Shown: positions 33,146-50,292, counted from the stretch's first letter. The stretch is 64,000 nt of DNA from a virus (IMGVR_UViG_3300040801_006072:180-64179), one strand, 5' to 3'. Program-made: numbers and translations. Notes: generated by a model not told the origin, from the letters alone.

Positions 33146-33149
33146 TGCC

Positions 33150-34823: not shown

Positions 34824-34825
34824 GT

Positions 34826-35050
34826 TTAAAGGTCTATGTCGAAATCTTTAATGATAGACTTGTAATTGCCCACAAGCTTGTCTTGCTTCGACCACATCGC
34901 TTCGATTTGCTTGAGGGCCTGGGTTGCACGACGATCTCCGACTTGCTGTTTTTTCAAGTCTGATATAATCTTGCGGTATTGACGAGCTGTTAGTTTAAGA
35001 TCATCCTCGATGTTCTCGTCAACTGGTTTTTTAATTTCACTCAGACGCAC
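34826..35050 (-). CDS. small hypothetical protein (MRLSEI N-terminus)
   Basis: 74-aa ORF. Confidence 0.6.
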   Translation of the reverse strand: MRLSEIKKPVDENIEDDLKLTARQYRKIISDLKKQQVGDRRATQALKQIEAMWSKQDKLVGNYKSIIKDFDIDL

Positions 35051-35054
35051 AGTA

Positions 35055-35519: not shown

Positions 35520-35799
35520 CTGGATTTTCCCCTACGCACTGATTATGCTTTTCCTGCGCTTTATATTCCAATGAAGTTCTTGCGCTATCTAGATAATCTT
35601 TTGCCAGTGTAATTTTTGATTGAACCTAGCCCTCTAGACCCTCACTTTCGGGAATATCTTTAATAAGGTCATGCAAAAACTTGCTGTCTTGCTGTATGCG
35701 ATGCAAGGCAGCTTTGGCCATATGCACTTCATGATCGTCCTTTTGGTTATAAGGATTATCAATTGCCTTCTGCGGAATCTGGATTTCGTCTAATTTCAT
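35506..35799 (-). CDS. 97-aa protein with an in-frame TAG at codon 58 (readthrough candidate); missed by the ORF track
   Basis: Manual translation: MKLDEIQIPQKAIDNPYNQKDDHEVHMAKAALHRIQQDSKFLHDLIKDIPESEGLEG*VQSKITLAKDYLDSARTSLEYKAQEKHNQCVGENPDETF. It fills the 35520-35811 gap exactly and overlaps the next start. Confidence 0.8.
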
Positions 35800-35811
35800 A
35801 CTGGTATTTAT

Positions 35812-36426
35812 CTATTGTATCTTATCTATCACCAGTCGGTTGACCCAACCTCGAATAAACCTTTCCTGTGTGCTGTCTTCTTCGGCTCTTCCTACGTAAA
35901 ATGAGCCGCGCAATATAAGCAATAGCTTGAGCACGTAAATATCGCTCTCTACGCTAAGACACTTGGTTAGTGCCATAGCAGTACGTGTTCCTGCCCAGCC
36001 GTCGACTTTGAGATCTTCGAACAGTGCTTGATCACGATTCAGCATGTTTAGCGTCCTTTGCAGGAATTCTGCTGCTCGCTTCACACCCATGTTAACAGAA
36101 CAATCGAACATTTCTGCTGCAATTTCTTTAGATTTGCTGCTCACACTGTCTAGGTTTAACTGACTGTGGTTCCAGAAGTTCTCGTAATAAAAGTGTTTAA
36201 CCCAATAATTAAGTTCTTCGTCGGCATACAAGCATTCAGGAAAATCTTCTTGCTCCTTTAGTTCGTCTACAACTTTCCAGCCAGGCCAATTAGGCCAATA
36301 AACTCTGCTCACACCCTTATATGTTTCTCCGCCATAGTCAGAAGGATCATCTACATAGCCTCCTTCGGCACTGCGAGTGAAAGCATAAGCCTCTAAAAAT
36401 ACTTCAGGTATAGCTACGTCTGTCAT
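35812..36426 (-). CDS. glycoside hydrolase family 108 lysozyme with peptidoglycan-binding C-terminus
   Basis: EGGYVDDPSDYGGETYKGVS, MFDCSVNMG, LQRTLN and FIRGWVNR. Confidence 0.92.
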   Translation of the reverse strand: MTDVAIPEVFLEAYAFTRSAEGGYVDDPSDYGGETYKGVSRVYWPNWPGWKVVDELKEQEDFPECLYADEELNYWVKHFYYENFWNHSQLNLDSVSSKSKEIAAEMFDCSVNMGVKRAAEFLQRTLNMLNRDQALFEDLKVDGWAGTRTAMALTKCLSVESDIYVLKLLLILRGSFYVGRAEEDSTQERFIRGWVNRLVIDKIQ

Positions 36427-37889
36427 GATATTTCTCCTAGCTGTCTTCCGACTAGCAGTTTAATTAGGTCTTGTGTGCTATCTGCGGATTTAGCACCTTT
36501 CTTCATGTTTTCTAATTCACCGAACAGTGATGCAAACGCCTGTAGTGTTTTCTTGTCGACTTCGTCTGTGTAGCCAAATTTTCTTTTGCTGTCGCCCACG
36601 TCAAGCTCGATGCTAAGATCAGCTTTGGTATCGTTATATTCTGACAAAAGATTTTCTAACTTGGTTTCGTATTGGTTGATTACACTGACCCAATATTGTT
36701 GTAACTCGGGGAAGTTAGTACCGTCTGCTAGATTATCTAGTATCTCTTCACGACTGTCGCCCTGCTTCCTAAGATGACGCTTGGCCTGTGTAGTACCTAG
36801 TTCAGGGTGACCAATGGCAGAAGATAAGCTGCCTAGAAGCTTACCTAAGAAACTCTCTACGGTGTTGACTGACCTAGGCTTTTCGCGAAGGTCGTTGCGC
36901 ACTTGCCATATAAAGTCTTTTGCTGTAGTAAACAGATCTTTGTCCACTACCTTGAACTGGTCGCCTGTTTTCTTGTGGCGGAATACTACGCCTTCAATCC
37001 AACCACCATCTTCGACTTCTGGGCCAAATTCGCTTTTGATTTGTCTAACCAAGCGATTAAGCAGAATTTCTTTGATGCGCAGCTTATAGCCATCTTTGCT
37101 TTCGCCGCCTATCATTTCATGCTGTATTTCTTCTCGCTTGGTTTTAAGCTGCTCTTTGACACTACGCCAGTTTTGGGGTTCTACGGAATCTGGTCTACGG
37201 TTTAAAGGTAGTGCCAAAACTTCTGCATTTGAAAACTTCCATACACCAGAAGGCTGTTTAAGATATGCTTCTAATTTATCGAGCTCTGCATGAATGCGAT
37301 CTTTTATCTCATCGTCTATCATGCTTTCACTGTCCCATGTGGGTGTCCTGCTAAAAGACCAGCGGTGTGTTTCTGGTGCAGTCTTGATTGTCTTTCCGTC
37401 AACAGTATAAGGTGCGTTTACACGAACTGTAACGATATCTCCGTCTAATGCTTTATGAAGATGGGCAATGTCTACGTCACCCTCAACTACTCGCAAAAGA
37501 ATAATCTCGTTCTCTTCGCTTGAGTAAGGTACTGCATTAGGTAGTGTACCAAACAGAACTTCAACTTCTATTCTGTCACCGCTTCTCATTCCGGCTTCTC
37601 GCATAACAGAAGCCTTTTGTTCTAGTGCAAGGTGAGCGGATCGCTGAAAGGTAGTAGAAAAATTAATGGGATAATCGTCAGCATTGTAAACTCGCTGTCC
37701 TCCCTTATCCTCACGAGTGGTGTAGAAGCCGTAGTCGTCAATGCCGAACTGTATATTGGCGCCATCTACTTTTTCAGATATCTCGTAATCTTCAAAGTTT
37801 CTCAGTGCATCTATAAACTGATCAACTGCGAGATCCTCGACGTGAGTAATGCCTTCGAATGTTGACTTACGTAGTTCGCCGAATTTCAT
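36423..37889 (-). CDS. putative ATP-grasp nucleotidyltransferase / RNA-ligase-like protein (MKFGEL N-terminus)
   Basis: Motif I-like SEKVDG, EVLFG, EGVVF and QFKVV. Confidence 0.6.
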   Translation of the reverse strand: MKFGELRKSTFEGITHVEDLAVDQFIDALRNFEDYEISEKVDGANIQFGIDDYGFYTTREDKGGQRVYNADDYPINFSTTFQRSAHLALEQKASVMREAGMRSGDRIEVEVLFGTLPNAVPYSSEENEIILLRVVEGDVDIAHLHKALDGDIVTVRVNAPYTVDGKTIKTAPETHRWSFSRTPTWDSESMIDDEIKDRIHAELDKLEAYLKQPSGVWKFSNAEVLALPLNRRPDSVEPQNWRSVKEQLKTKREEIQHEMIGGESKDGYKLRIKEILLNRLVRQIKSEFGPEVEDGGWIEGVVFRHKKTGDQFKVVDKDLFTTAKDFIWQVRNDLREKPRSVNTVESFLGKLLGSLSSAIGHPELGTTQAKRHLRKQGDSREEILDNLADGTNFPELQQYWVSVINQYETKLENLLSEYNDTKADLSIELDVGDSKRKFGYTDEVDKKTLQAFASLFGELENMKKGAKSADSTQDLIKLLVGRQLGEIS

Positions 37890-37904
37890 AGTTCGACCTA
37901 TGTG

Positions 37905-38531
37905 TTAGGATTTTCTTTTACGACCGAACATGTGTTCGTCGGTGTTTGATTCCTCTGCAGGCAAAAACTCTGCTGCAATCTGTCGGAAAACGTCTTTGAT
38001 CTGCTTATTGGTAATAGCAGTCTCATTTAGGATAGATTCGTCTAGGCCTTCTTCGCCCATGTATTTGAGAACTTGCTTTTGCAATCCTCTTTGCACAATT
38101 CCTCTAGCAAGCTTTGACACAATTTCGCTTTCGCCTTGAGAAGTAACACCGACTTGCTGGAAAGACTTTTTGATCTCTCGATCAGAGAATCCCATCTGTT
38201 GTAACAGACGAACAATCTCTTGTGTCCTTGATGGCTTACCTGAATTTTCCCAAACATCGAAAATGTCTTCGTAGCTGACTGTGCTCTTGCCTCGAACAGG
38301 ATCAACTACATTGCGTTTGATGTCTCGGCCTATTTCTCGAGCAGCACCTTTGGCACGATCGACTTGGTCTCGTGCTCGTTGCTTCAATGATTTTCCGATC
38401 TCTAGTGGTGCCTCATTAATGCCGGCAAGTTTCTTTAACCGTTCGGTCTCTTCAGTCTTGGCATTGCTATTGCGAATCTTAACAATCGTGTGAAAAATTT
38501 CTCGTATTGTCTCTGTGCTTAAATTAGACAT
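37905..38531 (-). CDS. hypothetical protein, possibly head-associated
   Basis: ERLKKLAGINE motif similar to those at 21756 and 56451. Confidence 0.6.
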   Translation of the reverse strand: MSNLSTETIREIFHTIVKIRNSNAKTEETERLKKLAGINEAPLEIGKSLKQRARDQVDRAKGAAREIGRDIKRNVVDPVRGKSTVSYEDIFDVWENSGKPSRTQEIVRLLQQMGFSDREIKKSFQQVGVTSQGESEIVSKLARGIVQRGLQKQVLKYMGEEGLDESILNETAITNKQIKDVFRQIAAEFLPAEESNTDEHMFGRKRKS

Positions 38532-38856
38532 GACGTTTGAGTTCCCTAGCAAGCTGTTCTTTTTGCTGATCTGTCAGCTTATCGTCAATTACACTTTTCA
38601 CTCTATCTAGTGCGGCGGCATCGACATCAGAAACACCGGTTGATTTATCCACTAGCAAATTTTGCAGTTTGGTTCTAACTTTATCCGGCAACACAAAATT
38701 ATACTCGTCCTTTAGAAAACCCGTCAAGAACTCGTATACATGCTGTCCTTGTGCCTGCTCTCCTGGTGTGTCCGGGGTAGCAATTCCGTTGCCCTTAGCA
38801 TACTGCAACCATGCTCCTACTAATTTCTCGACTCTAGGATCATTTTCAGGAATCAT
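38524..38856 (-). CDS. hypothetical protein
   Basis: 110-aa coupled ORF. Confidence 0.6.
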   Translation of the reverse strand: MIPENDPRVEKLVGAWLQYAKGNGIATPDTPGEQAQGQHVYEFLTGFLKDEYNFVLPDKVRTKLQNLLVDKSTGVSDVDAAALDRVKSVIDDKLTDQQKEQLARELKRHV

Positions 38857-39100
38857 CTTCTTTGTTCTCCTTGACCTTGCGAATCGATCTGCTGAAACGT
38901 CTTGGGTCTTGCCCTTTGATGCTGCTCAAGAATCTGCGCTTGAGCTGGTCTGCTTCCTCTTCTGAATAAGTCTCCTCGATCATTTCCAGTAGAAATATAG
39001 CAGACGAAATAACGTGGTGAGCTCTTGTCTCGATTAAGTCTTCTTTGTTCTTCTCGGGAACAAATGTACTGATCTCGTGTAAGATGCTTTTGCTAGACAC
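38846..39100 (-). CDS. hypothetical protein
   Basis: 84 aa; IETRAHHVISSAIFLLEMI...RRFLSSIKGQDPRRF. Confidence 0.7.
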   Translation of the reverse strand: MSSKSILHEISTFVPEKNKEDLIETRAHHVISSAIFLLEMIEETYSEEEADQLKRRFLSSIKGQDPRRFSRSIRKVKENKEDDS

Positions 39101-39138
39101 AATAATACCTTTCGGGCCGGTTTTCTGTATTTATCAGC

Positions 39139-40554
39139 TTATTCCATTCCTTTGAGAAGATTACGCAAGGCTGTTGCCTTATTTGCCGTATCTGCCGGCG
39201 TATCCTTCTCTTTATTAGGCGCTGTGGGCAGGCCGTTGCTAGGTTTCACCACGCTCTTTTGCTTGAGTGTGTCCATGATATTCTTTGTTGTAGCTTCAAC
39301 TGCGCCAGCATCGTCGTCGTCGAGATCACTTATGCGAAGTGTCTTTTGATTAAATGCTAAGTCGACCTTAGAACCTACACCTGAACTAGAACGTGTCTTC
39401 ATAAACTGTACTTGATAGCGCCCAGCTTCTTTCATCGCCATTGTTGAGAAAATTGCAATCACATTATCCGCAGTGTTCACCTTGGAAATACCTCCTGCAA
39501 TGTGACTGGCATCAAATTCTATTTCCTCAAACGATCCTCTGTTTAGCTGCGAAGCTGTAGCAAACAACACATCTAGGTCTGCTGCTAAGTTTCTAAATTC
39601 TTCCGAAACATACTTGTCCTTAATAAACTGGTCGCTTGGCGCCACTTTTACAGTGACTGGCCAACACAGGTCAAGATAGTCAACAAGGATCGCATCTGTC
39701 TTTATGCCTGTTTGCACTTCGTACTCTTTTACGTATGCTCGAATATCATTCACTGTGCTACCACTTGGCATGTACTTTAGTCGTACATTACCCTTGTGCT
39801 TTTTGTGGAAGCTCTTAACACGCATCGCAACGTCTTCGGAGTTTTTAAGTACTTCTCTAGTCTCGTATCCTGCTGTCATTGCGTCTAATCTCATGGCACA
39901 TAAGTTCTCACTAAGCTCAAGTGTTATGTAGACCACGTTTAGTCCTTCGATTGCCCAATTTATGGCTAAATTTTGCAGGAATAAGCTCTTCCCTGCTCCA
40001 GGTTGTCCCGCAAAGATTGTGATCTCTCCTCGGTTGAAACCACCATACAATTTCTTGTCTACATCGCGCCAGCCAGTGCTGAGCAGGCCGCTGTTATTCT
40101 TAATTGCCTCTAGTCGAGCTAGCGGATCTGCAAAGTAGTCTGTGCCTAGATCTTTAACCAGTCCAATCTGCACAGCTTCTTTAATCTTTGCTTCTACTTC
40201 GCCATATCTGCTTTCTTCTAGGAGATCTGGGGAACTAAGAATTGCTAGCTCTAGTGCTTTGTGTCGACAGAACTTCTCATAGGAATTCAAGAACCATTCT
40301 TTATGATTATCTGCAATTCCGGAGACTACTTCAATCTCTTTGCCAGCGACTGCCCTAATCTGCTCGATTGTCGGAAGTGCATTGTAGTCGTTTGAGTGAC
40401 TGCTCAGGAACTCAATAGTGCGCTTGTTAATTTCGCTGTTGAAATATTTTGAATCGGTAATGCCTTTGCATCTTACAAACAGTTCAGGATCACTTACCAT
40501 GAACTGTATAAAGAGATCTTCGATCTCTTTGGTATAATCTTTAATGTCTATCAT
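39139..40554 (-). CDS. replicative DnaB-like helicase (T4 gp41-like)
   Basis: Walker A AGQPGAGKS, ITLELSE, ILVDYLDL, TASQLNR and KTRSS. Confidence 0.93.
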   Translation of the reverse strand: MIDIKDYTKEIEDLFIQFMVSDPELFVRCKGITDSKYFNSEINKRTIEFLSSHSNDYNALPTIEQIRAVAGKEIEVVSGIADNHKEWFLNSYEKFCRHKALELAILSSPDLLEESRYGEVEAKIKEAVQIGLVKDLGTDYFADPLARLEAIKNNSGLLSTGWRDVDKKLYGGFNRGEITIFAGQPGAGKSLFLQNLAINWAIEGLNVVYITLELSENLCAMRLDAMTAGYETREVLKNSEDVAMRVKSFHKKHKGNVRLKYMPSGSTVNDIRAYVKEYEVQTGIKTDAILVDYLDLCWPVTVKVAPSDQFIKDKYVSEEFRNLAADLDVLFATASQLNRGSFEEIEFDASHIAGGISKVNTADNVIAIFSTMAMKEAGRYQVQFMKTRSSSGVGSKVDLAFNQKTLRISDLDDDDAGAVEATTKNIMDTLKQKSVVKPSNGLPTAPNKEKDTPADTANKATALRNLLKGME

Positions 40555-41572
40555 TCTTACTCATTTTCCATTTTAATTGTATTTTTGTCGGATTCCGTTC
40601 CGATGAGTCTATGATTGATCTTAGCGTTAATATTCTGCCATACTTTCTTGTTGCTTCTGCCGCATCTTTTATTCCATCACCCCATTCTGGAAAAGCAACT
40701 CGCCAACCCTCTTTGACTGCGATCTCAACCAGTGTGTCTCCTGCTTTGTCTCGGTCCGGACACACAATGACTTTCTTGCCTAGTGTTTTAATAATTTGTG
40801 CTTGCTCTGGATCCAAGGTATTGTGACAAGAACTTATGCCGTCGACGAAGTACGCATCAAACACACCTTCACACAGTATTACATATTCTCTTTCAAAGCC
40901 GTATTGATTGCTTAGATTATATATGTAATTTTCCGGCATACGGTTAAGATATTTGGGCACGCTCTTGTTAGGCGTTTTGCCAAAGTATCTACCAGTGTAT
41001 CCTACTATTTCACCGCGGAACCAAAACGGCAGCAACAGTCTTTTATTAAAGGTGTATTCTTTGTCTGGTGTCCAATACACATGTCGGAAATTAGTAAATC
41101 CCCTGTTCAATGCATAGTCAGCTACCTGTAGGAAATTAGGATCTGTGCATCCTTGGTCAGCCCAGTCTTGCAAGGTTCTAGAATCCTTAGGCAATGCCAT
41201 TGGTTTCCAGTTTTTAGTGATGATGCCACGAAGCTGAATGTCGTTGCTTGATTCTACTGCATTTTGTTCTTTGAACAATTCGAAGTTCAGTTTACGTATG
41301 TCGTACTGGCTAACTCCGATCTCTTTAAGGAATCGTATAAACTTCTTACTGAACGTTTGACCAGGTGACCAAACTGCATCATACCCGCAGTTGAAACAAT
41401 GGGCTGCTATTTTTCCGTCAGGAGAGAATAACACACCGAATCTGCCTCGGGTGTCTCTCGACTCACCACTCAGGTGGCACAACATACAGTTTCGTGTTAG
41501 CCAGCCTTTTCTAGATTTTTTGACTGGCCCGAGATGCTGTATGATCAGTTCTTGTAATAATTTTTGAACCAT
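40541..41572 (-). CDS. DNA primase (T4 gp61-like)
   Basis: Zn-binding CMLC...HCFNC; GYTGR; TOPRIM ILCEGVFDA and PDRDKAG. Confidence 0.9.
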   Translation of the reverse strand: MVQKLLQELIIQHLGPVKKSRKGWLTRNCMLCHLSGESRDTRGRFGVLFSPDGKIAAHCFNCGYDAVWSPGQTFSKKFIRFLKEIGVSQYDIRKLNFELFKEQNAVESSNDIQLRGIITKNWKPMALPKDSRTLQDWADQGCTDPNFLQVADYALNRGFTNFRHVYWTPDKEYTFNKRLLLPFWFRGEIVGYTGRYFGKTPNKSVPKYLNRMPENYIYNLSNQYGFEREYVILCEGVFDAYFVDGISSCHNTLDPEQAQIIKTLGKKVIVCPDRDKAGDTLVEIAVKEGWRVAFPEWGDGIKDAAEATRKYGRILTLRSIIDSSERNPTKIQLKWKMSKNDRH

Positions 41573-41580
41573 ACTGAGGT

Positions 41581-41610
41581 ATTATAGCACAGATACTCAG
41601 TATTTTACAA
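41581..41610 (-). promoter_or_regulatory. sigma70-type promoter (extended -10) upstream of primase
   Basis: TTGTAA-18 nt-TATAAT with TGn just before the -10 box. Confidence 0.6.
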
Positions 41611-41623
41611 GTCGAAAGACTCG

Positions 41624-42511
41624 TTAGCTTCTGAGTATAATCTTCTTAAGTGTGCCGGGTTCAACAACTTCCATTGAAGGTGTGTACCTGAACTTAAAGA
41701 ACATCACGTTAGCTTCAAACGAAAATGCTTGGGTCCCAAAGAATTCGATGAACTCGAGCATCTCCGATCCGGTCACTACCTGAATATTAAACCAATGGTC
41801 TGTTGTCGGATCGCTTTGTGGATTGATATCTAGTGTACCTAACAACTCTAGTGTTCCTGTGAATCTGTTGTCCTGGTCGGTATACACAGAAAAACTGTGA
41901 GTAGAGTTAGTATGGTTCTGTACTCTACCTGCAGGAATAGTGGAACTATAAAACTGACTGATGATAGGTGTATTTCCGTTTACCAGTGTTCTCTGTTCTG
42001 TCCAATCATCTTCCTCGATGATGAAACTAGGCCTAGGCACACGTTCTGCTTGGCCTGTAATTCTCACTGTGGTAACAATGTTGCTATCAGTATCAGTAAA
42101 TACCGGAGTAGTAAGTGACTCACCAATGCGCCCTGGTACAAAGTCCTTTTGTCCTACAATTACCAATTCATACAATCCTTGTGCAAGGTTTGCAATATCA
42201 CCTTCGTTCAAATCCAAAAATAGCATTCCGATTGCAGTGTTTGTTCTGCAAGGCTTTTCGAGCACTAGCTCACGATTTTCAGTATTAAACAATCTACCGT
42301 ACAATTGATAGGTGCAGATGTTTATTGGCTTACGGTCCGGATCAAACACACGGAATTTCAACGTATTATCCATGCCTTTGTGGACTTTAATTTCTCGACG
42401 GTTCATAGGCGCATTATCCGTATCGATGCAGGTGATCCTATCGTCGCACATGAGTAGACGTCGAACGTCGTCAAATAGATAGAGATCAGTCAGTGTTGTT
42501 TTCATGTACAT
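41624..42511 (-). CDS. hypothetical protein, possibly structural
   Basis: 295 aa; IKVHKGMDNTLKFRVFDPDRKP. Confidence 0.7.
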   Translation of the reverse strand: MYMKTTLTDLYLFDDVRRLLMCDDRITCIDTDNAPMNRREIKVHKGMDNTLKFRVFDPDRKPINICTYQLYGRLFNTENRELVLEKPCRTNTAIGMLFLDLNEGDIANLAQGLYELVIVGQKDFVPGRIGESLTTPVFTDTDSNIVTTVRITGQAERVPRPSFIIEEDDWTEQRTLVNGNTPIISQFYSSTIPAGRVQNHTNSTHSFSVYTDQDNRFTGTLELLGTLDINPQSDPTTDHWFNIQVVTGSEMLEFIEFFGTQAFSFEANVMFFKFRYTPSMEVVEPGTLKKIILRS

Positions 42512-42577
42512 ACAGCTATTTATCTGGATGTTACCAAGAATTCATAGGGGACGAATAGCTCCATAATAAATAGCTTT

Positions 42578-42946
42578 GTGGATATTACAGAAGTACAAGA
42601 AAAGTTCCCGTTCCTAACCGGTCTGAAATACCAAGATCGGGAATTCCTCTGCATCATACAAAATCATAGTGACAAGATCATGAGCTTCTATGATTTCAAT
42701 CAAATCTCCACATCAGCAGAAAAACAACTGTTTTTAGACTATGGCGATACATGGTGGTGGGAATCGAACAGACTTCTGCCTATCAATATCTTCCTAACAG
42801 GAAAAATGGCTCACTTCAGGTACTGCTTAAAAACAGTAGCAATGAAAGATGTAGAAATTCTGTTCGGTCCCACAACAAGTCTTAATAACCTAATGAAGAA
42901 AAGAATCAAAAAGCGTCAGATTCAACTCGTTAGGAAATCCGATTAA
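42578..42946 (+). CDS. hypothetical protein; the only convincing plus-strand gene
   Basis: EKFPFLTGL...YGDTWWWESNRLLPINIFL; fills an otherwise empty gap; ATAAATA on the plus strand just upstream. Confidence 0.75.
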   Translation: MDITEVQEKFPFLTGLKYQDREFLCIIQNHSDKIMSFYDFNQISTSAEKQLFLDYGDTWWWESNRLLPINIFLTGKMAHFRYCLKTVAMKDVEILFGPTTSLNNLMKKRIKKRQIQLVRKSD

Positions 42947-43626
42947 ATCTTCTTTCCTTTTAGCACATCCTTTAACACCAACTTATTATTTGTAGAATGA
43001 ACCAATACCGTGTTGTCCTTCTCACGGTAAGTTTTGATCTTATCTCCACGCATACCCGATCCTGCTAGATCTTTGCACATTGCTTTCTCTTCGCAGCGCC
43101 GAATTGACTCGTAATGTTCGCGAACACGCTCTTCTAACAAACGCCTAGCTTCGGTGCGATTATAGTGCTGGCACTTCTTTGCGCTTTTCGCTTCAATGCC
43201 CGTTGGCAAATGTCGCATGACGACACAGCTTTCAGTTTTGTTGCGATGTTGGCCGCCTGGGCCAGAATCTTTAGTTGTGAATGTTTCTATGTCACTATCA
43301 TGTAACTCGTAGTTCACAACATCTTGTTTCTTACGAGCAACCACAGTCACAGTAGAAGTGTGCACACGACCACGAGTTTCCGTAGGTGGGACTCTTTGCC
43401 AGCGATGGCCGCCGGATTCATTCAGTAAGGGTTGTAGGTTTTTCTCTTTACCAGAACAGCAAAGAGTAATGGAATTTCAGCCGCAGGCTGCTCGAGACTC
43501 AGCAATGGTCTCTACGTGAAGATTGTGCTTGGCACAGTAATTTTGATAAATCGATGCTTGCTTCTCTACTAATAGCTTTGCATCATCGCCGCCTTCGGCA
43601 GCTCTAATTTCAAGTAGTAATTTCAT
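42943..43626 (-). CDS. truncated RF1-type peptide chain release factor with an in-frame TGA at codon 50
   Basis: MKLLLEIRAAEGGDDAKLL...AACG*NSITLCCSG...NESGGHRWQRVPPTETRGRVHTS...SGPGGQHRNKTESCV. GGAGG RBS before the ATG at 43626; TGA at 43479-43477. Confidence 0.88.
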
Positions 43627-43643
43627 AGTTATTACCTCCGTAC

Positions 43644-43651
43644 TATTTATA
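43644..43651 (-). promoter_or_regulatory. T4-type late promoter upstream of the release factor gene
   Basis: Exact TATAAATA, 18 nt upstream of the ATG. Confidence 0.7.
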
Positions 43652-43936
43652 CTACGCGGACTCTAGGCCTAAGTCTAGCAATGCTTTCCTCGTTACATCT
43701 TCAAGTCTCATAATAGACAGAAAACATTCTACTGCATCTTCATAATCGCTAAACCAAGTTTCCATGCCGCTGTCGTCAAGGCCCCAGGCACACACCACAT
43801 ACTCTTTTGTAACTGGGCTTTGGTCTAAGGACACTTCGACATATTGGTCAAGATCAGAACACTTGATCGAAGGATACCAATCTTCGGACGTCCTCTTAAG
43901 ACAATTAAAAGTTTTCATATGCATTTGCCTGTTCAA
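43652..43936 (-). CDS. hypothetical protein
   Basis: ~90-aa ORF ending TAG. Confidence 0.6.
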   Translation of the reverse strand: MNRQMHMKTFNCLKRTSEDWYPSIKCSDLDQYVEVSLDQSPVTKEYVVCAWGLDDSGMETWFSDYEDAVECFLSIMRLEDVTRKALLDLGLESA

Positions 43937-44495
43937 GTAATAGATTCATTTGGACCACAATGCTGAGTGCATATGCAACAGAGTGGCTCTTTTTAAAATG
44001 GTACGATCCGTCGGCAGGTTTGTCCCACACGGTCTCGGAAATCACCTCCCATGGCTTATTTTGCAGGTGCGCTTTGGACGGGCGAATAATCGCAAGCAAC
44101 ATTGCTAACTGCTCGACGGATCGTGGTTTGTGAGCTTTCACCAAACGATAATAGTCGCCAATGTGAAATAGCTCTTTTACAATTTCTTCTACCTCTAGCA
44201 AAGTCCAATCTGGTTCTTTGCTTAGTAATTTGTCTAAGTGTGCTTCGTTGCGCACATCCTCGTAGATACTAACATTAAGACAATCAATTTTAAAATACCC
44301 CAACAGTTCGGCATCTTTGTAATCAATATTAGCTTGATTGGTAAATGGATCTTTCGGAATGTTCTGCAAATAGATTCCTGTTTTGTGCTTCTCCATTTCC
44401 TTGCGGCGCTGAATACTTGCGTCGGCAAAACGCAAACCCTGCAGAGCACGATCACGATCTGCAAAATCGATATCTACGTCTGCTTGAATTATCAT
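43905..44495 (-). CDS. minimal DnaE (C-family DNA polymerase) palm-like protein
   Basis: ADVDIDF (cf. DnaE PDFDVDF), KHKTGIYL, GYFKIDCL (cf. GLVKFDFL), LAIIRP and FKKSHSVAYA. Confidence 0.8.
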   Translation of the reverse strand: MIIQADVDIDFADRDRALQGLRFADASIQRRKEMEKHKTGIYLQNIPKDPFTNQANIDYKDAELLGYFKIDCLNVSIYEDVRNEAHLDKLLSKEPDWTLLEVEEIVKELFHIGDYYRLVKAHKPRSVEQLAMLLAIIRPSKAHLQNKPWEVISETVWDKPADGSYHFKKSHSVAYALSIVVQMNLLLEQANAYENF

Positions 44496-45175
44496 AGACC
44501 CGCCTCGTTAAGCACAGTTTTGATAAATTTTACATCTTCCTGATTTTTAGTGATCCTGCTTGTCCATATGCCTGGATTAATAATCGGCTCAATCATTGCG
44601 TATTGTTCCTCATTGAACCTATCCATCAGTCCATCGGCGCTAGGTGCAAGATACAAAACCCAGGGGCTAATCTTGCCTGTCTTTAAATAGTATACAGCTT
44701 CTTGTGTTGTTGCACTGCGGAAAAAGTCATTAAAATTGTTGCCCGATTCTTCTGCCCACTCTGTAAAAAATAGCATTGTTCTTTCCAACGCTCGCTCGGG
44801 TGGCTCTTTTTTCATAAGCTCGACAAGATATGTTTCGTAAACGTAATCCTTTTGCCAATCTTTCAACTTCACCGAATTCTTAATCACAAAGTCTACAAAG
44901 TTATCTGTGTTAATCGGATTCAGTTCTGCAAGGTGTCTGCCGAACTTAACAAAAGCAGTGTAGTATTGACTGTCGATAAAATCTTCAAACGACTTGGGAT
45001 TCTTCGCAGTAGTTGTTAACTCGAAGAATCGCTGAAAGACTCGGAACCCCAATCTACTGCCAATGCTGTCTCGGTCTGCATATCTCCTTTTCTTAGGGCA
45101 CATGTGAGAACTCAGGGTTTTCTCCTGAGCAAATGACTTTTTACAGAATTTACATTTGAAAGGTTTATTTGACAA
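44492..45175 (-). CDS. C2H2 Zn-finger-containing protein
   Basis: FKCKFCKKSFAQEKTLSSHMC. Confidence 0.75.
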   Translation of the reverse strand: MSNKPFKCKFCKKSFAQEKTLSSHMCPKKRRYADRDSIGSRLGFRVFQRFFELTTTAKNPKSFEDFIDSQYYTAFVKFGRHLAELNPINTDNFVDFVIKNSVKLKDWQKDYVYETYLVELMKKEPPERALERTMLFFTEWAEESGNNFNDFFRSATTQEAVYYLKTGKISPWVLYLAPSADGLMDRFNEEQYAMIEPIINPGIWTSRITKNQEDVKFIKTVLNEAGL

Positions 45176-45623
45176 TTTCTTTTATTTCTTTGTCGTCATA
45201 TCCGGCAGCAATCAAGGTGTCTACTATTTCTTCTTTGCTGGATATAGTTTCTAACAACTCAAGCTCGTCATTCTTGAGACTTGGGTAAATCTTAGACAGT
45301 GTTTCCTGGACCTTATTTTTGCCTCGTGTCTTTCCCGGCTTAATCCATTGATGAAACTGTTTAGTTCCTGTGCCGCACAGCGCCATCAGTTTCCACTGTA
45401 ATTCAGGATGCTTTGTTAGAGCACTGAAGTTGTGATTAACAAACTCATTTACCATAATGAGATAGTGGTCTGCTGTTCGGCCTTTACAAGAGCTCAGCCA
45501 GCGCATGGTAATCCATGCGACGAACTCTTTCTTTTTATCATCGTCTAGCCTATTATAAAAGTCCTTGTCGCCCTGGTCAAGTGCAGGCAGGACTTCTTTA
45601 AACATGTCTAATTTTTTTGCCAC
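45165..45623 (-). CDS. putative clamp-loader small subunit (gp62-like)
   Basis: LDMFKEVLPALD...WITMRWLS...HPELQWKL...FHQWIKP; resemblance recalled, not computed. Confidence 0.55.
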   Translation of the reverse strand: MAKKLDMFKEVLPALDQGDKDFYNRLDDDKKKEFVAWITMRWLSSCKGRTADHYLIMVNEFVNHNFSALTKHPELQWKLMALCGTGTKQFHQWIKPGKTRGKNKVQETLSKIYPSLKNDELELLETISSKEEIVDTLIAAGYDDKEIKEIVK

Positions 45624-45885
45624 GTGTTTTCTCTTTCTGGTTAGGACCAATAAGTGCAGGATTTTTTAGTGCCCAGTTGAACAAACTTGTGCTATTCAGT
45701 TTGCCTTTGAGCATGAGAACATTTAAGAGTTGCTCGTCCTCTGTGTGTACCTCAACAACTTGTCGATATGTTTCGTCTTGAGTAATTCGATAGTGCGTAA
45801 ACCCTAGCTCTTGTAAGTATCGATGCAAGGGCAGTTCTGAGGAAGCACTGCGAGTTAGTGCATATTCAAATGCAAACTTTCTCAC
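45598..45885 (-). CDS. hypothetical protein
   Basis: 95-aa ORF with GTGA overlap. Confidence 0.55.
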   Translation of the reverse strand: MRKFAFEYALTRSASSELPLHRYLQELGFTHYRITQDETYRQVVEVHTEDEQLLNVLMLKGKLNSTSLFNWALKNPALIGPNQKEKTRGKKIRHV

Positions 45886-46385
45886 GAAAATAATTCGCCT
45901 ACACTCAAGCTATCGGGTATCTTGTTTTTCTCTTTCACAAAAATTGCACAGCGAGGCTTATCACCTTCCTCTAGAGGAACCACAAGCATGGTGCCGTGTC
46001 TCAATTTCGGAAAATACCATTTTACTTCTGCATACACATTTACGATATTTACTTCGAACGGTTCGGGAACCATGTGATGAAGTGGATTGAATACTGTGGT
46101 GAAGAATCCCCTATCATTCAATTCAGTTAGAGGCATAATCTCGATATCCGAGTAATCTTCGTCACACACCACAATTGACCAGTCAAGTGGCATTTGTATT
46201 CTATTCTCACCAATCTGCAACACAATCGCAGGAGCATAAAATGACTCTAGGAAGATCAAAGGAATAAAATAGTAGTCGGTGTTGCTAGGATCTGTAGTAT
46301 CAAACACACAGTAACGAATGTCCTCTACTTCATCAGGAATCCTATTTAATTCATAACTCTTGTTTTCGTGGGTTAGTATTAGCAT
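45882..46385 (-). CDS. hypothetical protein
   Basis: DYYFIPLIFLESFYAPAIVL...MPLDWSI...KWYFPKL. Confidence 0.75.
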   Translation of the reverse strand: MLILTHENKSYELNRIPDEVEDIRYCVFDTTDPSNTDYYFIPLIFLESFYAPAIVLQIGENRIQMPLDWSIVVCDEDYSDIEIMPLTELNDRGFFTTVFNPLHHMVPEPFEVNIVNVYAEVKWYFPKLRHGTMLVVPLEEGDKPRCAIFVKEKNKIPDSLSVGELFS

Positions 46386-46386
46386 A

Positions 46387-46677
46387 TTATCTTGTCGTCG
46401 CTTCGTGTGAATAGTGTTCTAGGTGCTCTTTAAAATCCATTCCGCTCCTGAGACGAATCAGCATTTCTGCCTGATCCATTTCATCATCCCATTCGAGATA
46501 CACAGCTAAGAATCTCGACTCAAGTAGATCAGGACAAATCTCGTCGTAATGGCCTATAGCAAAAGCTTTATTCGGAAATATAATTTCCAGAATGTCTTGA
46601 ATTAGGCGGAAATCTAAAACACTTATTTTTGTTAAAATTTCTCGTGGATTGTCGAGTTCGTGTTTTTCAACCAGCAT
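46387..46677 (-). CDS. hypothetical protein
   Basis: 96-aa coupled ORF. Confidence 0.6.
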   Translation of the reverse strand: MLVEKHELDNPREILTKISVLDFRLIQDILEIIFPNKAFAIGHYDEICPDLLESRFLAVYLEWDDEMDQAEMLIRLRSGMDFKEHLEHYSHEATTR

Positions 46678-48110
46678 CAGTAATTTAGCTTATGTACCTT
46701 GTGAGGATACCCTGCTTCCTTGTAGTGTTTCTTTCTTTTTGTTAGGTGTCGTTTTGCATACTTACAACTAGACGTGATGTCGTATACGTTTACGAAGTCT
46801 TTGTCTTCTGCTACACGAAGTCCTCGACCAATCGACTGTATCACTCTCACAAAACTTTTCCCGGGCTCAATCAACACGAGATTAAAAATACGGTTGATGT
46901 TAATTCCAGTAGATGCAACACCGTATGTAGCAATGATCAACTTATTATCTTCGAACTGTACAGATTTGTATTCTTCCTTCCTATCAGTGGATTTTACTTT
47001 ACCACTAATAAATACCCCGCCCAAATGCTCTTCGAGCATTTCACCGGTTTGCACACGATCAACAAGAACCAATGTGTTTCCTTGTTGTGCTAGTCCAGAG
47101 ATCTTATCTGCAATAAATTCAATTCTGTCGCTACAGGTAGTGAGCCATTTTAGCTCTGCTTGATAGTTATTAAAGCCGCCAGGATCCTGTAGCTGCCAAA
47201 TATCAATATGGCAATTAGCAAGGTATCCTTTTTCTTGCAGATCTGAGGCTTTAATTTCGCCTGCTGTAGGACCAATACATGCCAACACACCTACCTTTTC
47301 GTATTCTTCTTCGGGCAGTGTTCCAGTTAGTCCCCAACGGATCGGACAATGCGCAAACTCTTGGCTTAGTAGTCGCTTCAGTACATCTGCTTTTGCTTTG
47401 TGAACTTCGTCTACTATCACTGCTGCCACACCGTCTGTCATTGCGTCGATAGAGCCATCTCTTTTCTTTTTCAGTACTTCTAGGCTTTGCCATGTGCAAA
47501 TGGTATGAGTGTGCCCTACTTCTTTTCTATCTCCGTAATACACACCTACATCAAGCCCAAAGTTAATGTAATCTTCTTCTGTTTGTGTAACTAGATCCTT
47601 AGTAGGAACAATAACCACACTGCGACCGTATTGCTCGACTTTGTGCGACAGGATAGCAGTAATAATTGTCTTGCCGCCAGCAGTGGGGCAAATGTTAACT
47701 GACTGTGTTTCCTGTAAAGAACTGTTAATGACGCCGACTTGATAGTCTCTTAGCACAACAGGCTGGCCAGCTAGCGGGTGTCCTTCGGGCCACTTAACAT
47801 GACTGTAACTGTTTTCGTCTACTTCTTGAAACTCGAAGCTGTAGTGTGTCCTTCGGTCATCAAGTTCAATGTCATAACCAGCAGAATATACGATCGGCAA
47901 TATGCGATCTAAAAGATTGATATAGGTTCGACCACCAGTGTCACAGAATGTAATATTTCCATTCCATCGGCCTAATTTATAGGCCGGAGTATGCCTAGCA
48001 TACGGAAGGAAGTAAGTAAGTTCTTTTACGATTTTTCTGCGAGTTTCTACATCTAAATTGCTTAGACGGCAGTTGACTTCATCCTTGATTTCTAGAATAC
48101 ACTGCTTCAT
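46677..48110 (-). CDS. uvsW: SF2 DNA helicase (UvsW-like)
   Basis: LRDYQ, PTAGGKT, VIVDEVH, GLTGT and QSIGRGLR; start moved to ATG at 48110, downstream of the promoter. Confidence 0.92.
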   Translation of the reverse strand: MKQCILEIKDEVNCRLSNLDVETRRKIVKELTYFLPYARHTPAYKLGRWNGNITFCDTGGRTYINLLDRILPIVYSAGYDIELDDRRTHYSFEFQEVDENSYSHVKWPEGHPLAGQPVVLRDYQVGVINSSLQETQSVNICPTAGGKTIITAILSHKVEQYGRSVVIVPTKDLVTQTEEDYINFGLDVGVYYGDRKEVGHTHTICTWQSLEVLKKKRDGSIDAMTDGVAAVIVDEVHKAKADVLKRLLSQEFAHCPIRWGLTGTLPEEEYEKVGVLACIGPTAGEIKASDLQEKGYLANCHIDIWQLQDPGGFNNYQAELKWLTTCSDRIEFIADKISGLAQQGNTLVLVDRVQTGEMLEEHLGGVFISGKVKSTDRKEEYKSVQFEDNKLIIATYGVASTGININRIFNLVLIEPGKSFVRVIQSIGRGLRVAEDKDFVNVYDITSSCKYAKRHLTKRKKHYKEAGYPHKVHKLNY

Positions 48111-48126
48111 AAAATCCTTTTTGCTT

Positions 48127-48155
48127 ATTATAATGCCAGCGTTCCATGCTGTCAA
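48127..48155 (-). promoter_or_regulatory. perfect sigma70 consensus promoter for uvsW
   Basis: TTGACA-17 nt-TATAAT. Confidence 0.85.
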
Positions 48156-48157
48156 GA

Positions 48158-48183
48158 GAAACGTGGCCCGAAAGCCACGTTTC
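48158..48183 (-). terminator. hairpin, likely terminator, after the accessory island
   Basis: GAAACGTGGC / GCCACGTTTC 10-bp stem with a TTTCGG loop; weak T-tail. Confidence 0.6.
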
Positions 48184-48192
48184 ATTCTTTTG

Positions 48193-48576
48193 TTACTTGT
48201 CTTCGAACTCCTCCTTTAACTTCAGGTATTGTTCTCGACGTCTTTCTTCGGCTGCTTTTTCTTCCTTGAGCTTTCGGGCCTTTTCGCGATGTTCTTTCTT
48301 GCGCTGTTCCTCGGCCTGCCTGGTCTTTTCTTTTTCCATCCACTCTTCATCCCAAAGATAGCTAGCAGGGATTGTGTGGTGGTCGGATTCGTAATAACCG
48401 CAGCAACTCTGGGAAGTATGGATCGTCATAGAATACGAATCGAAATCAATGTGTTCGATGTATTCTCGATCACGGCCGTTTGCCTTAAGCCAAAGATTAC
48501 CGATATCTTCTGCTCTCTCATAAATCTCTTCATGTGCACGAGCAAAAACTGCGTATCTGCGTTCGGTGATAGCCAT
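48193..48576 (-). CDS. hypothetical protein with charged C-terminal coil
   Basis: 127-aa ORF. Confidence 0.65.
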   Translation of the reverse strand: MAITERRYAVFARAHEEIYERAEDIGNLWLKANGRDREYIEHIDFDSYSMTIHTSQSCCGYYESDHHTIPASYLWDEEWMEKEKTRQAEEQRKKEHREKARKLKEEKAAEERRREQYLKLKEEFEDK

Positions 48577-49025
48577 TATGCAACCTCCTCCATCTTTGCA
48601 ACAGTGTTAGGATCGATTAATTTCCAACCCTTAATGATCTCAGCTACAGACTTGAGAGCATCTTCGTCGATGGTTCCGCCAAAAGGACCGAGCAGTTCAG
48701 CTCTTCGTTTCTTGGCGTATGGAGTATCACCTTCGATGCCTATACAGATTTTCCATTTGGCCTGCTCGAAAGCATAGTACGGCGGCTGGCCATGGACTTT
48801 GTAGTTAGGAACAAACAGCTTGTGAATGTCCTTCCCACGAAGTAGGGCATATAGCAGATGGTGTTCGCACTTCAGACTGCTGGCAAAGTATGGGGTTCCA
48901 CCCCAGTACTTCATTTCCTGTTTTTTTGCCTGACCCGAATTGATGTAGTCTTTCCAGGCCTGTCTGAATTGCAGGTAGTGGTCTTTTGTTTCAAAAAAGT
49001 TGTATTGTGCGTTTTCGATTTTCAT
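48576..49025 (-). CDS. hypothetical protein
   Basis: 149 aa; GGAG RBS. Confidence 0.7.
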   Translation of the reverse strand: MKIENAQYNFFETKDHYLQFRQAWKDYINSGQAKKQEMKYWGGTPYFASSLKCEHHLLYALLRGKDIHKLFVPNYKVHGQPPYYAFEQAKWKICIGIEGDTPYAKKRRAELLGPFGGTIDEDALKSVAEIIKGWKLIDPNTVAKMEEVA

Positions 49026-49096
49026 GGTTTGTTTCTCCGTAAATTAAGGTTTGTAGTTTGCACAGATATACAAACCCTTACGGGGAACCACGAATA

Positions 49097-49258
49097 CTAG
49101 GAATCTAGGTCCAGATCATCTTCCTTTTCCTCCTCTTCTGGTTGTGATGAGTAAAAAGGTGTGTTCCTTTCTTCCCATCGTTTAGCAGCGGTAAGCTGCA
49201 CTGTTAAATCCTTCTTGGCTGCTTCAAGCGCAAGTTGGAATGCTGTCTTCTTCGTCAT
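49097..49258 (-). CDS. small acidic-tailed hypothetical protein
   Basis: MTKKTAFQLALEAAKKDL...EEEEKEDDLDLDS; overlaps the upstream ORF. Confidence 0.4.
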   Translation of the reverse strand: MTKKTAFQLALEAAKKDLTVQLTAAKRWEERNTPFYSSQPEEEEKEDDLDLDS

Positions 49259-49490
49259 CGAACGGACTCGGCTGAGGATATCTCTCAAGCCAGTTGTAGA
49301 ACAGGTCCCAAATCGGGTCCTCTTCTTCCGGATAGTAAGGCTTCTGTGCCCAACGATCCCACGAAAACATCGGTCCACAGTACGGATGGAACTCCATCCA
49401 CACATAACGATTGCCGACATGGAAACGAAATCTAGGGTGATTTGTTCCGCAAAGTATCAGCGATCCGTCTTTGGACGATACGCAACTCAT
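49224..49490 (-). CDS. hypothetical aromatic-rich protein
   Basis: 88 aa; TAATG coupling; WMEFHPYCGPMF. Confidence 0.6.
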   Translation of the reverse strand: MSCVSSKDGSLILCGTNHPRFRFHVGNRYVWMEFHPYCGPMFSWDRWAQKPYYPEEEDPIWDLFYNWLERYPQPSPFDDEEDSIPTCA

Positions 49491-49681
49491 TAACCTACAC
49501 CCTGAATTTCAGTGATCACATCGTTCTCAATGATCACGTTAACCCTGTCTAGTCGATAATCACAGGTACCCATCATCCACTCGCCGTCGACTTTGGCCTT
49601 ACGTAGTACCATGTCTGCGAGACTGAGGAGTGCCTCAGCTTCGGGTATTGTCTTACCAATCAGTTGGTCAAAGTTTTGCAT
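49490..49681 (-). CDS. potato-inhibitor-I / peptidase inhibitor I78-like small protein
   Basis: 63 aa: LIGKTIPEA...MGTCDYRLDRVNVIIENDVITEIQGVG; GGAG RBS. Confidence 0.6.
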   Translation of the reverse strand: MQNFDQLIGKTIPEAEALLSLADMVLRKAKVDGEWMMGTCDYRLDRVNVIIENDVITEIQGVG

Positions 49682-49703
49682 AATCTTCTCCCATTGCAGA
49701 CTG

Positions 49704-49732
49704 ACAGTAGCAATATTTAGCTTCGATGTCAA
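49704..49732 (-). promoter_or_regulatory. sigma70-type promoter downstream of the tRNA
   Basis: TTGACA-17 nt-TACTGT. Confidence 0.6.
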
Positions 49733-49740
49733 CCTATGTT

Positions 49741-49816
49741 TGGTGCTCCGGGTGGGACTCGAACCCACGACCGGCGGTTTTAGAGGCCGCTGCTCTGCCA
49801 ACTGAGCTACCGGAAC
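49741..49816 (-). tRNA. amber suppressor tRNA (anticodon CUA), Trp-like anticodon arm
   Basis: GTTCCGG TA GCTC AGTTGGCA GAGC A GCGGC CT CTA AA ACCGC CGGTC GTGGG TTCGAGT CCCAC CCGGAGC A CCA; 76 nt, encoded CCA, C31-A39 mismatch. Confidence 0.93.
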
Positions 49817-49826
49817 GTATGTAGCT

Positions 49827-49855
49827 ATAGTAGCAATATTGCTCTTCGTTGTCAA
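49827..49855 (-). promoter_or_regulatory. sigma70-type promoter for the suppressor tRNA
   Basis: TTGACA-17 nt-TACTAT, ending 11 nt before the tRNA 5' end. Confidence 0.8.
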
Positions 49856-50292
49856 GAAAGGATATATTCTTTTGCAAGCTCTGCACGAATCTTCATCAAA
49901 AGCTTGCCCAAGTGGTTTTCTCCTTCGCCGTCGCAAACACCCCAGAACTTATCGCCCCAGGTATTTCCTTCGACTAGCTCGCAATCCCCTGTAAGCAGTA
50001 GCATCTCTCTCATGCTCGGAACAGAAAACTTAGCACGTAGAATATTTTCCATCACTTCAAGTTTCACTGTTTCCCAATCTTCTCGCAAAGGCACCATTCT
50101 GCCGGCTCGCTTGGCTTGGCCCGGTGTACGGCAATTACGAATAAAGTCTTTCCACACAGGATCGTTTGTCTTAGCACACATATATGCATGTTCGGAACTA
50201 GGATACTCATATCCATCATAGATTACTTTACAGTAATAGAAGTTAGACAGAAAATGAAATTCGTCTGAGAAATTATTAATCGATTCTTGCAT
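49852..50292 (-). CDS. NADAR (YbiA-like) family protein
   Basis: FLSNFY, SSEHAYMCAK, AKRAGR, WETVK...AKF, LVEGNTWGDKFWG and GENHLGKLLMKIR. Confidence 0.92.
   Translation of the reverse strand: MQESINNFSDEFHFLSNFYYCKVIYDGYEYPSSEHAYMCAKTNDPVWKDFIRNCRTPGQAKRAGRMVPLREDWETVKLEVMENILRAKFSVPSMREMLLLTGDCELVEGNTWGDKFWGVCDGEGENHLGKLLMKIRAELAKEYILS

Follow-up and report, generated by a model that had tools for sequence, protein, structure and literature searches.

Suppressor tRNAs are known from phages with a standard genetic code but they are unexplained, and for XacN1, the closest characterised carrier, no gene served by such a tRNA has been found. We have analysed a stretch of virus DNA of 64,000 nucleotides (IMGVR_UViG_3300040801_006072:180-64179, hereafter the window, with positions counted from its first letter) which encodes a tRNA with the anticodon CUA. 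Which amino acid does this tRNA carry, and which UAG codon does it read? An earlier note had described it as an amber suppressor apparently derived from tRNA-Trp but lacking bacterial Trp identity elements, and had left the inserted residue undecided between Trp, via a phage-encoded synthetase, and Lys or another residue, via a host enzyme. Our analysis indicates that it is most likely a host-charged suppressor of low efficiency. It also provides a candidate for a concrete natural target, a single UAG that lies within a conserved, widespread domain and occupies a site at which Trp is unambiguously expected. The two results stand in some tension, since a tRNA of the Lys type faces a codon position of the Trp type.

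ARAGORN detects one tRNA gene within the window, on the minus strand and with the anticodon cta at position 34, and the 69,037-bp record containing the window has no tRNA besides this one. The Rfam model RF00005 is matched over positions 1-71 of 71 with a score of 63.2 bits, compared to a gathering score of 29 (E = 2.3e-11). The acceptor stem GUUCCGG/CCGGAGC includes G1-C72, U2-G71 and U3-A70 and its 5′ strand is followed by a UA linker. The D arm reads GCUC-AGUUGGCA-GAGC with A26 as the next nucleotide, and the anticodon arm GCGGC-CUCUAAA-ACCGC forms four Watson–Crick pairs and a C31·A39 mismatch below a 7-nt loop. A variable loop CGGUC and a T arm GUGGG-UUCGAGU-CCCAC complete the molecule, which ends with the discriminator A73 and a CCA encoded in the gene. 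The nucleotides involved in tertiary contacts are all intact (U8, A14, G18G19, U33, the UUCGA T-loop and G53-C61). The details given in the earlier note, i.e. a 76-nt cloverleaf with a CU-CUA-AA loop, G1-C72, U2-G71, C31-A39 and A73, were all correct on re-reading, and the assignment as an amber-suppressor-type tRNA holds, with CUA at positions 34-36 of a seven-nucleotide loop and support from both ARAGORN and Rfam. ARAGORN labels the gene tRNA-Pyl, a label that follows from the anticodon alone since the architecture is canonical. The products of pylT have a short D loop without G18G19, a 3-nt variable loop, a 6-bp anticodon stem and no TΨC consensus. We have rejected this identity in view of the 8-nt D loop with G18G19, the 5-nt variable loop, the five-position anticodon stem and the UUCGA T-loop.

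The gene is also reproducible between samples. All 76 nt including the CTA are identical on two contigs from other samples in the JGI metagenomes, L450 (99.9% identity over 2088 nt with two single nucleotide polymorphisms (SNPs), both outside the tRNA) and L451 (100% identity). The two SNPs elsewhere identify L450 as a slightly different strain, and the presence of the identical gene on both contigs means that the CUA anticodon is not an assembly slip. Logan contigs from four DNA runs show zero variant letters across 35400-49900. The exact tRNA sequence had no match in IMG/VR. Judged from its sequence, the tRNA is very probably real and functional.

The record itself comes from microbial-mat metagenomes, is listed as a virus contig in IMG/VR and has an estimated CheckV completeness of 19%. 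Since 81% of the genome is missing, our statements on a single tRNA and on the lack of synthetase genes apply to the fragment. The gene content (tail sheath, large terminase, ribonucleotide reductase (RNR), UvsX, UvsY, gp32, DnaB, primase, a GH108 lysin and a NADAR protein) characterises the contig as part of the genome of a T4-like jumbo myovirus. Its UvsX has its nearest counterparts, at 60-67% identity, in Phosso, Atu_ph07 and large phages of Xanthomonas and enterobacteria. Every gene lies on the minus strand and about 95% of the sequence is coding under table 11, with 56 TAA, 16 TGA and 12 TAG stops. TAG ends 12-14 of the roughly 85 genes in the fragment and occurs in frame only once in 69 kb. 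On these grounds, and given the 95% coding density by table 11, wholesale recoding of TAG in the manner of code 15 was rejected.

The tRNA belongs, as far as sequence relationships tell, to a conserved clade of CUA tRNAs found mostly in jumbo myoviruses with an otherwise standard code. When it was compared as a whole, with the anticodon masked, to 893 phage tRNAs, the nearest neighbours were the CUA tRNAs of Phosso (0.84), of the contig G002 (0.83) and of XacN1 (two copies, 0.77), with that of G003 also within 0.77-0.84; tRNA-Lys ranked after these and the tRNA-Trp of the same phages were distant. A search with the CUA-specific core pattern AGAGCA-N5-CUCUAAA-N6-GGUCGUGGGUUCGA returned 14 IMG/VR and 38 JGI loci, corresponding to 41 distinct family sequences, many of them on contigs of 175-376 kb. 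Members of the clade are mutual nearest neighbours and the tRNA studied here has the shared core. Each of the acceptor pairs 2-71 to 6-67 occurs as five or six pair types and is paired in 37-40 of the 41 members, and four or five pair types are found at 28-42, 29-41 and 30-40 (the D and T stems are fixed by the search pattern and hence uninformative for covariation). The covariation of the acceptor stem therefore argues for selection on a working tRNA.

The mismatch at 31-39, which according to the earlier note may tune suppression efficiency, recurs within the clade and appears to be one of its hallmarks rather than a defect. These positions are unpaired in 16 of 41 members (nine C·A, four C·U) compared to 37 of 832 sense phage tRNAs (three C·A), i.e. 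about nine times more commonly (Fisher p ~1e-10, a value that overstates independence as the clade members are related). Moreover, C·A is found here with six different stem sequences. The clade signature, an unpaired and often C·A 31-39, coincides with a site known to shift suppressors between LysRS and GlnRS, and the position may tune charging identity as well as decoding efficiency. These data also bear on the possibility that the gene is a decayed tRNA-Lys gene, without function, that has suffered an anticodon mutation and a stem mismatch. CUU differs from CUA by a single base and there is indeed a mismatch in the anticodon stem, but the tertiary nucleotides and the CCA are intact, the gene has its own predicted promoter, 41 CUA relatives carry compensatory acceptor changes and C31·A39 recurs in the six stem contexts, so that decay appears very improbable.

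Some carriers have more than one tRNA reading a stop codon. XacN1 (Xanthomonas; L082 5998-6073 and 6081-6156) and Phosso (Sinorhizobium; 171983-172058 and 446731-446806) encode two CUA tRNAs each, of which one carries A73 and the other G73. In XacN1 the two copies agree throughout positions 8-65 and their differences are confined to the acceptor stem and the discriminator, as though each were made for a synthetase of its own. A complete 336-kb relative, G013 (IMGVR_UViG_3300031957_002643), has both CUA and UCA (opal-reading) tRNAs, at 145422-145493 and 254867-254942, and at 79950-80510 a gene ending in TGA with a 66-codon in-frame extension that looks coding.

The tRNA is best described as a mosaic in which an anticodon arm of the Trp type is combined with an A73 body of the Lys/Arg type, at least by sequence comparison. 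BLAST of the tRNA against 50,697 phage records retrieved nearly only tRNA-Lys genes as top matches, with the Phosso ‘tRNA-Pyl’ and an XacN1 ‘tRNA-Sup’ among the matches. The top BLAST match was tRNA-Lys(CUU) of Streptomyces phages with 87.7% identity, and the nearest sense tRNA is a phage tRNA-Lys(CUU) at 86%. In an alignment with tRNA-Lys(CUU) of phage FlowerPower the tRNA shows little or no change in the acceptor stem, the D arm, the 5′ strand of the anticodon stem and the T arm. Among the substitutions are U36A, A43C and G39A, the last of which gives rise to C31·A39. A pattern of the shared core with a free anticodon found 120 tRNAs in IMG/VR, 68% of them with Lys anticodons (TTT 72, CTT 10, CAT 9, TCT 8, GTT 5, TGT 4, CCA 3, CTA 2 and a few others). 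When the arm is left out of the comparison, the body falls nearest to an Arg/Lys/Thr/Ile/Met/Asn group (top-5 identity 0.81-0.77), in which Arg (0.811) and Lys (0.805) tie; Trp reaches 0.68 and ranks 15 of 21 isotypes and Gln, at 0.66, is among the lowest. The discriminator agrees with this picture, A73 being present in 64 of 70 phage tRNA-Lys and in none of 26 tRNA-Trp, of which 25 have G73, while phage tRNA-Gln are mixed (G 19, A 6, U 6).

On the other hand, the anticodon arm is most similar to that of tRNA-Trp. Over positions 27-33 and 37-43 the mean similarity is 10.06/14 to tRNA-Trp, the highest of all isotypes, compared to 8.76 for Lys-CUU and 7.62 for Lys-UUU, and the arm of one phage tRNA-Trp (L133; GCGGU-CUCCAAA-ACCGC) is only one or two bases away. 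The sequence AAACC at 37-41 occurs in 22 of 32 tRNA-Trp versus 5 of 78 tRNA-Lys(UUU); since only 17% of all A36 tRNAs have it, AAACC is not a general A36 feature. The resemblance to tRNA-Trp noted earlier can accordingly be upheld for the anticodon arm, but the body and A73 do not support a derivation from tRNA-Trp, and the further claim that the bacterial Trp identity set is lacking is correct (A73 instead of G73, U35, and G1-C72). A tRNA-Trp derivative of the Su7 type was rejected for the molecule as a whole because of A73 and of acceptor, D, variable and T regions unlike those of tRNA-Trp. We infer that the Trp-like arm reflects adaptation to a C34-N35-A36 anticodon rather than ancestry, a reading based on the idea of an ‘extended anticodon’; ancestry of the arm from tRNA-Trp is possible.

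When the TAG stops were analysed for possible read-through, a single location stood out, between the lysin gene and the next gene. A stretch of 293 nt is non-coding there by table 11 and a single frame fills it, from the ATG at 35799 to a TGA at 35508-35506, giving a 97-codon open reading frame (ORF) interrupted by one TAG. The terminal TGA overlaps the ATG of the next gene, as is usual in this genome. Searched with phmmer against 1.84 billion representatives, the 97-residue translation has 905 homologues (E < 1e-3), and the alignments cross the TAG, covering query residues ~19-85. At the position of the TAG all 23 aligned homologues and all 149 top matches have Trp, within the motif EGLEG-W-VQSKIT, and the remaining invariant residues on both sides are intact. 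A search within the phage's own genome equally reports one TAG inside the ORF. The same TAG recurs in L083, an independent contig from JGI with one SNP elsewhere, and in a Logan contig, and it is the allele of every available assembly. A degenerate DNA probe with TAG at codon 58 gave no match in IMG/VR and none in the JGI metagenomes (records of the phage's own genome may be hidden in this search), while the same probe with TGG gave at least 120. The TAG thus appears to be a lineage-specific, single TGG-to-TAG transition. The ORF could not be named by Pfam or PHROGs, it has no close relatives in IMG/VR, and its domain is absent from Phosso, XacN1 and G001-G003. We consider it likely that the suppressor reads this internal UAG, which would make the ORF the first plausible natural target for the CUA clade.

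The upstream lysin gene ends with a TAG in the same frame, four codons before the ATG of the ORF, and double read-through of both TAGs would give a 306-residue fusion. Both TAGs precede a purine, whereas T is the next base at 7 of 12 TAG stops, a trend based on few cases that did not hold more widely. The other 11 TAG stops of the contig have extensions of 0-37 codons that look non-coding, and a stop-to-stop scan gave one convincing case only.

Which residue would be inserted? Amber suppressors with A73 and U35, in which C34 is tolerated like a modified U34, are charged by the E. coli LysRS, and the examples include a suppressor derived from tRNA-Trp with A73 and G1-C72 (PMC2965240). The present tRNA has U35 and C34, with A at position 36. 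Because A73, G1-C72, C34 and U35 are combined on a body of the Lys/Arg type, Lys is our first choice for the residue inserted at UAG, with an even chance of being correct as far as sequence can tell. The contig has no match to PF00579 (the TrpRS/TyrRS family) or to PF00152 (the class-II Lys/Asp/Asn type), and PF00579 has none in the complete genomes of Phosso or XacN1; a host enzyme is for this reason the likely charger. Between the two routes envisaged in the earlier note, Lys via a host enzyme is consequently the better reading, with A73, a body of the Lys/Arg type and no gene of either synthetase family in the contig, whereas Trp via a phage-encoded synthetase finds no TrpRS-family gene in any of the three sequences and an A73 that never occurs in phage tRNA-Trp. 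Separately, Phosso has a 206-aa ORF among its tRNA genes (L363, 4321-4482) with a marginal match of 21.5 bits to tRNA-synt_2, the class-II Lys/Asp/Asn core.

The tRNA could instead be charged with Gln, by GlnRS or by the GluRS/amidotransferase route, as in TAG-to-Gln phages, supE and Su7. The E. coli GlnRS prefers G73, a weak 1-72 pair, G2-C71 and G3-C70. The present tRNA, with A73, a strong G1-C72, U2-G71, U3-A70 and a body at 0.66 to phage tRNA-Gln, departs from this. In favour of Gln, TAG-to-Gln recoding is documented in phages (phage-recoding preprint), U35 is a GlnRS determinant, and the discriminator of the clade varies (A 19, G 9, U 8, C 4) like that of phage tRNA-Gln and unlike that of tRNA-Lys. 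The 31-39 pair shifts amber suppressors between the E. coli LysRS and GlnRS in a seesaw-like manner, C31 favouring Gln when paired with G39 (PMC1483225). The C·A found here lies outside the set of pairs studied in that work. In sum, we regard Gln as an unlikely residue at UAG.

A third solution is that UAG is decoded as Trp, with charging either by a host TrpRS able to accept A73 and U35 or by a phage factor in the missing 81% of the genome, in what would be the first step of a TAG-to-Trp reassignment. Trp is not dismissed because the sole in-frame TAG that we found sits on an invariant Trp codon (149/149) with the other invariant residues intact, and the anticodon arm is most tRNA-Trp-like, the L133 arm being one or two bases away. 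However, a single codon one transition away from TGG is weak evidence, A73 is found in 0/26 phage tRNA-Trp, the body similarity is just 0.68, and the contig, Phosso and XacN1 have no TrpRS-family gene. To our knowledge, TAG as a Trp codon is undescribed in any genetic code. Among phages with a code unlike that of their host, only TAG-to-Gln and TGA-to-Trp have been reported (phage-recoding preprint). Furthermore, G73 and C35 are the major determinants of the bacterial TrpRS, and the E. coli tRNA-Trp(CUA), which has G73, is charged mainly with Gln via GlnRS (PMC2965240). Insertion of Trp is for us quite unlikely, and the same low probability attaches to UAG being a genuine Trp codon read by the mosaic tRNA, possibly together with the UGA-gated RF1-type factor of the phage described below. 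If it were true, this would be a new codon reassignment, an incipient TAG-to-Trp in a jumbo phage.

Other carriers of the clade offer little sign of internal UAG codons. Gap-filling scans of Phosso (469 kb), 80 kb of XacN1, G013 (336 kb, complete), G005 (376 kb) and G001-G003 revealed no credible in-frame TAG, tblastn with stops over 3.3 Mb gave none either, its matches being antisense artefacts, and TerL and RNR of 13 clade-bearing records have no TAG inside. TAG makes up 14% of the stops in clade-bearing genomes. Since TAG-terminated genes moreover have no protective context, as detailed below, suppression should be of modest efficiency. In an observation apart, the conserved UvsX gene of contig L024 has an in-frame TGA at ~2448 to which 61 homologues align; a sequencing error, a pseudogene and read-through are all possible.

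The phage under study also encodes a short class-I release factor of the RF1 type, which has the GGQ and the PPT tripeptide. Its gene contains an in-frame TGA that is spanned by the PCRF match and directly preceded by a TATAAATA motif. Such a factor would oppose UAG read-through, and alongside an amber suppressor it looks paradoxical. Release factor genes are lacking in both Phosso and XacN1, so that the factor does not belong to the kit of the tRNA clade. These findings are relevant to the possibility that the tRNA is functional but that the internal TAG is a recent, inactivating TGG-to-TAG mutation in an accessory gene, the role of the suppressor being elsewhere, as in its standard-code relatives, e.g. 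to lengthen particular proteins of the host or the phage, to disturb termination in the host or to buffer a huge genome against nonsense mutations. The lack of in-frame TAGs in clade-bearing relatives (also PMC5852040), the uniqueness of the TAG at this codon to one lineage and an RF1-type factor working against UAG read-through would all fit such a scenario. Nevertheless, the ORF has no other signs of decay and its end overlaps the start of the next gene like that of intact genes, the TAG allele is present in every available assembly, and a CUA tRNA in the same cell would hardly fail to cause some read-through. We judge an unrelated TAG to be rather unlikely. The phage may be at the first step of a route in which a suppressor is followed by internal stops, or the TAG may be a fresh nonsense mutation that is partly masked.

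Returning to a Lys-charged suppressor that reads codon 58, the steps can be formulated as follows. Host RNA polymerase would transcribe the tRNA from its own sigma70-type promoter and a host synthetase would charge it, most probably LysRS because A73, U35 and C34 are joined to a body of the Lys/Arg type. The charged tRNA would then compete with RF1 at UAG codons and cause read-through, presumably partial since TAG still ends 12-14 genes and C31·A39 weakens the anticodon stem. At codon 58, where UAG has replaced the invariant Trp codon by one transition (TGG to TAG), a change visible at the level of the sequence, the suppressor would permit translation to the end of the ORF, with insertion of Lys or of another residue if that is what the tRNA carries.

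Several observations weigh against this scheme. The E. coli LysRS prefers A31-U39, and C-G at this position cuts lysylation 100-fold (PMC1483225), while the tRNA has C31·A39. The anticodon arm is specifically Trp-like, unlike the arms of other A36 tRNAs generally. Since all 149 top matches have Trp where this phage has the TAG, Lys may well cripple the protein, an outcome which a Trp-inserting tRNA would avoid, and with no TAG at codon 58 elsewhere in IMG/VR or JGI versus at least 120 TGG the TAG may be a recent nonsense mutation. Reading of internal UAG codons is apparently not the general job of the clade, because no in-frame TAG was detected in the other carriers. In eight clade-bearing sequences TAG-terminated genes have no extra back-up stops (17% within 3 codons versus 21-27%) and no excess of T at +4. 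Finally, the missing 81% of the genome may hold a second CUA tRNA of the G73 type, as in Phosso and XacN1, or a synthetase. Taken as a whole, the chain of a functional, Lys-charged suppressor reading the UAG at codon 58 seems to us about as probable as its failure at one of these steps.

The features discussed are collected in the table below. The promoter-like match, one of sequence only, ends 10 nt upstream of the tRNA 5′ end. The 27-nt motif that it contains occurs exactly twice in the window (49706-49732 and 49829-49855; 0.1 expected), in direct repeats flanking the tRNA, and the second copy precedes the next small gene (ATG at 49681). The position of the tRNA between the only two direct copies suggests an insertion that duplicated an early promoter. 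Directly upstream of the tRNA and beside a UvsY-like gene lies a gene for a NADAR-domain protein (49852-50292, minus strand, E = 4e-27). NADAR proteins reverse ADP-ribosylation, and this is possibly a counter-defence gene.

Features of the window, with positions counted from its first letter
Feature	Position	Strand	Evidence
tRNA(CUA), 76 nt	49741-49816	minus	ARAGORN, Rfam RF00005 and fold; identical copies in L450 and L451
97-codon ORF (MKLDEIQ...), in-frame TAG at 35628-35626 (codon 58)	35506-35799	minus	frame analysis and homology
GH108 + PG_binding_3 lysin, stop TAG followed by A	35812-36426	minus	Pfam and frame analysis
Short RF1-type class-I release factor gene, in-frame TGA at 43479-43477	42943-43626	minus	Pfam PCRF (C-terminal half) and RF-1
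Sigma70-like promoter, TTGACA-17-TACTAT, extended -10 TG	49827-49855	minus	consensus scan, 10/12 matches
Second copy of the 27-nt promoter-like motif, just downstream of the tRNA	49706-49732	minus	pattern search

Around the lysin, two further observations can be mentioned. Directly upstream of it a 488-aa protein (36423-37889, minus strand) has a KxDG nucleotidyl-transferase motif and a sub-threshold match to RNA_ligase (E = 0.005). In the region 33000-37900 (minus strand) neighbouring, unrelated genes begin alike with M-[KR]-[LF]-x-[ED]-[IL] (MRLSEI, MRLSDI, MKLDEI, MKFGEL); homologues of the ORF with the in-frame TAG open similarly (MKLNEF, MRLNEF), and this leader recalls the capsid-targeting sequence of T4 internal proteins.

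The closest known counterparts are the two copies of tRNA-Sup of XacN1 and the ‘tRNA-Pyl(cta)’ of Phosso (446731-446806), members of the same clade with 0.77-0.84 identity when the anticodon is masked. Both phages are standard-code myoviruses and related to the present one by a UvsX identity of 60-67%. The three phages have in common the D arm, the CUCUAAA loop, the GGUC variable loop and the GUGGG/CCCAC T stem of the tRNA. A73 is shared with Sup1 of XacN1 and with Phosso, and XacN1 also has C31·A39 where Phosso has U31-A39; the acceptor-stem sequence differs from both. For XacN1 no suppressor target was found behind 18 amber stops (PMC5852040), in contrast to the in-frame TAG inside a conserved domain in the phage described here.

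Among suppressors of known charging, those mischarged by the E. coli LysRS (yeast tRNA-Trp(CUA), tRNA-Tyr(CUA), tRNA-Phe(CUA) and amber derivatives of several E. coli tRNAs) share G1-C72, A73, C34, U35 and a loop of the CUCUAAA type with the present tRNA (PMC2965240, PMC1483225). They are, however, engineered or heterologous and were assayed in E. coli, whereas this one is a natural tRNA known from sequence. The E. coli tRNA-Trp amber suppressor Su7 (supU) shares an anticodon arm of the GGY-CUCUAAA-ACC type, but it keeps G73 and the body of tRNA-Trp and inserts mainly Gln (PMC2965240), in contrast to the A73 and the Lys/Arg-type body found here. Recoded phages (crAss-like, Lak and recoded jumbo phages, with TAG to Gln) likewise carry a phage-borne CUA tRNA. 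The model proposed for them, in which a suppressor is acquired first and in-frame stops accumulate afterwards (phage-recoding preprint), would fit a phage with a single coding TAG. It differs from them in that TAG is an ordinary stop with one internal occurrence, aligned with Trp and not with Gln, and in having a release factor of the RF1 type rather than the RF2 reported for TAG-recoded phages (phage-recoding preprint).

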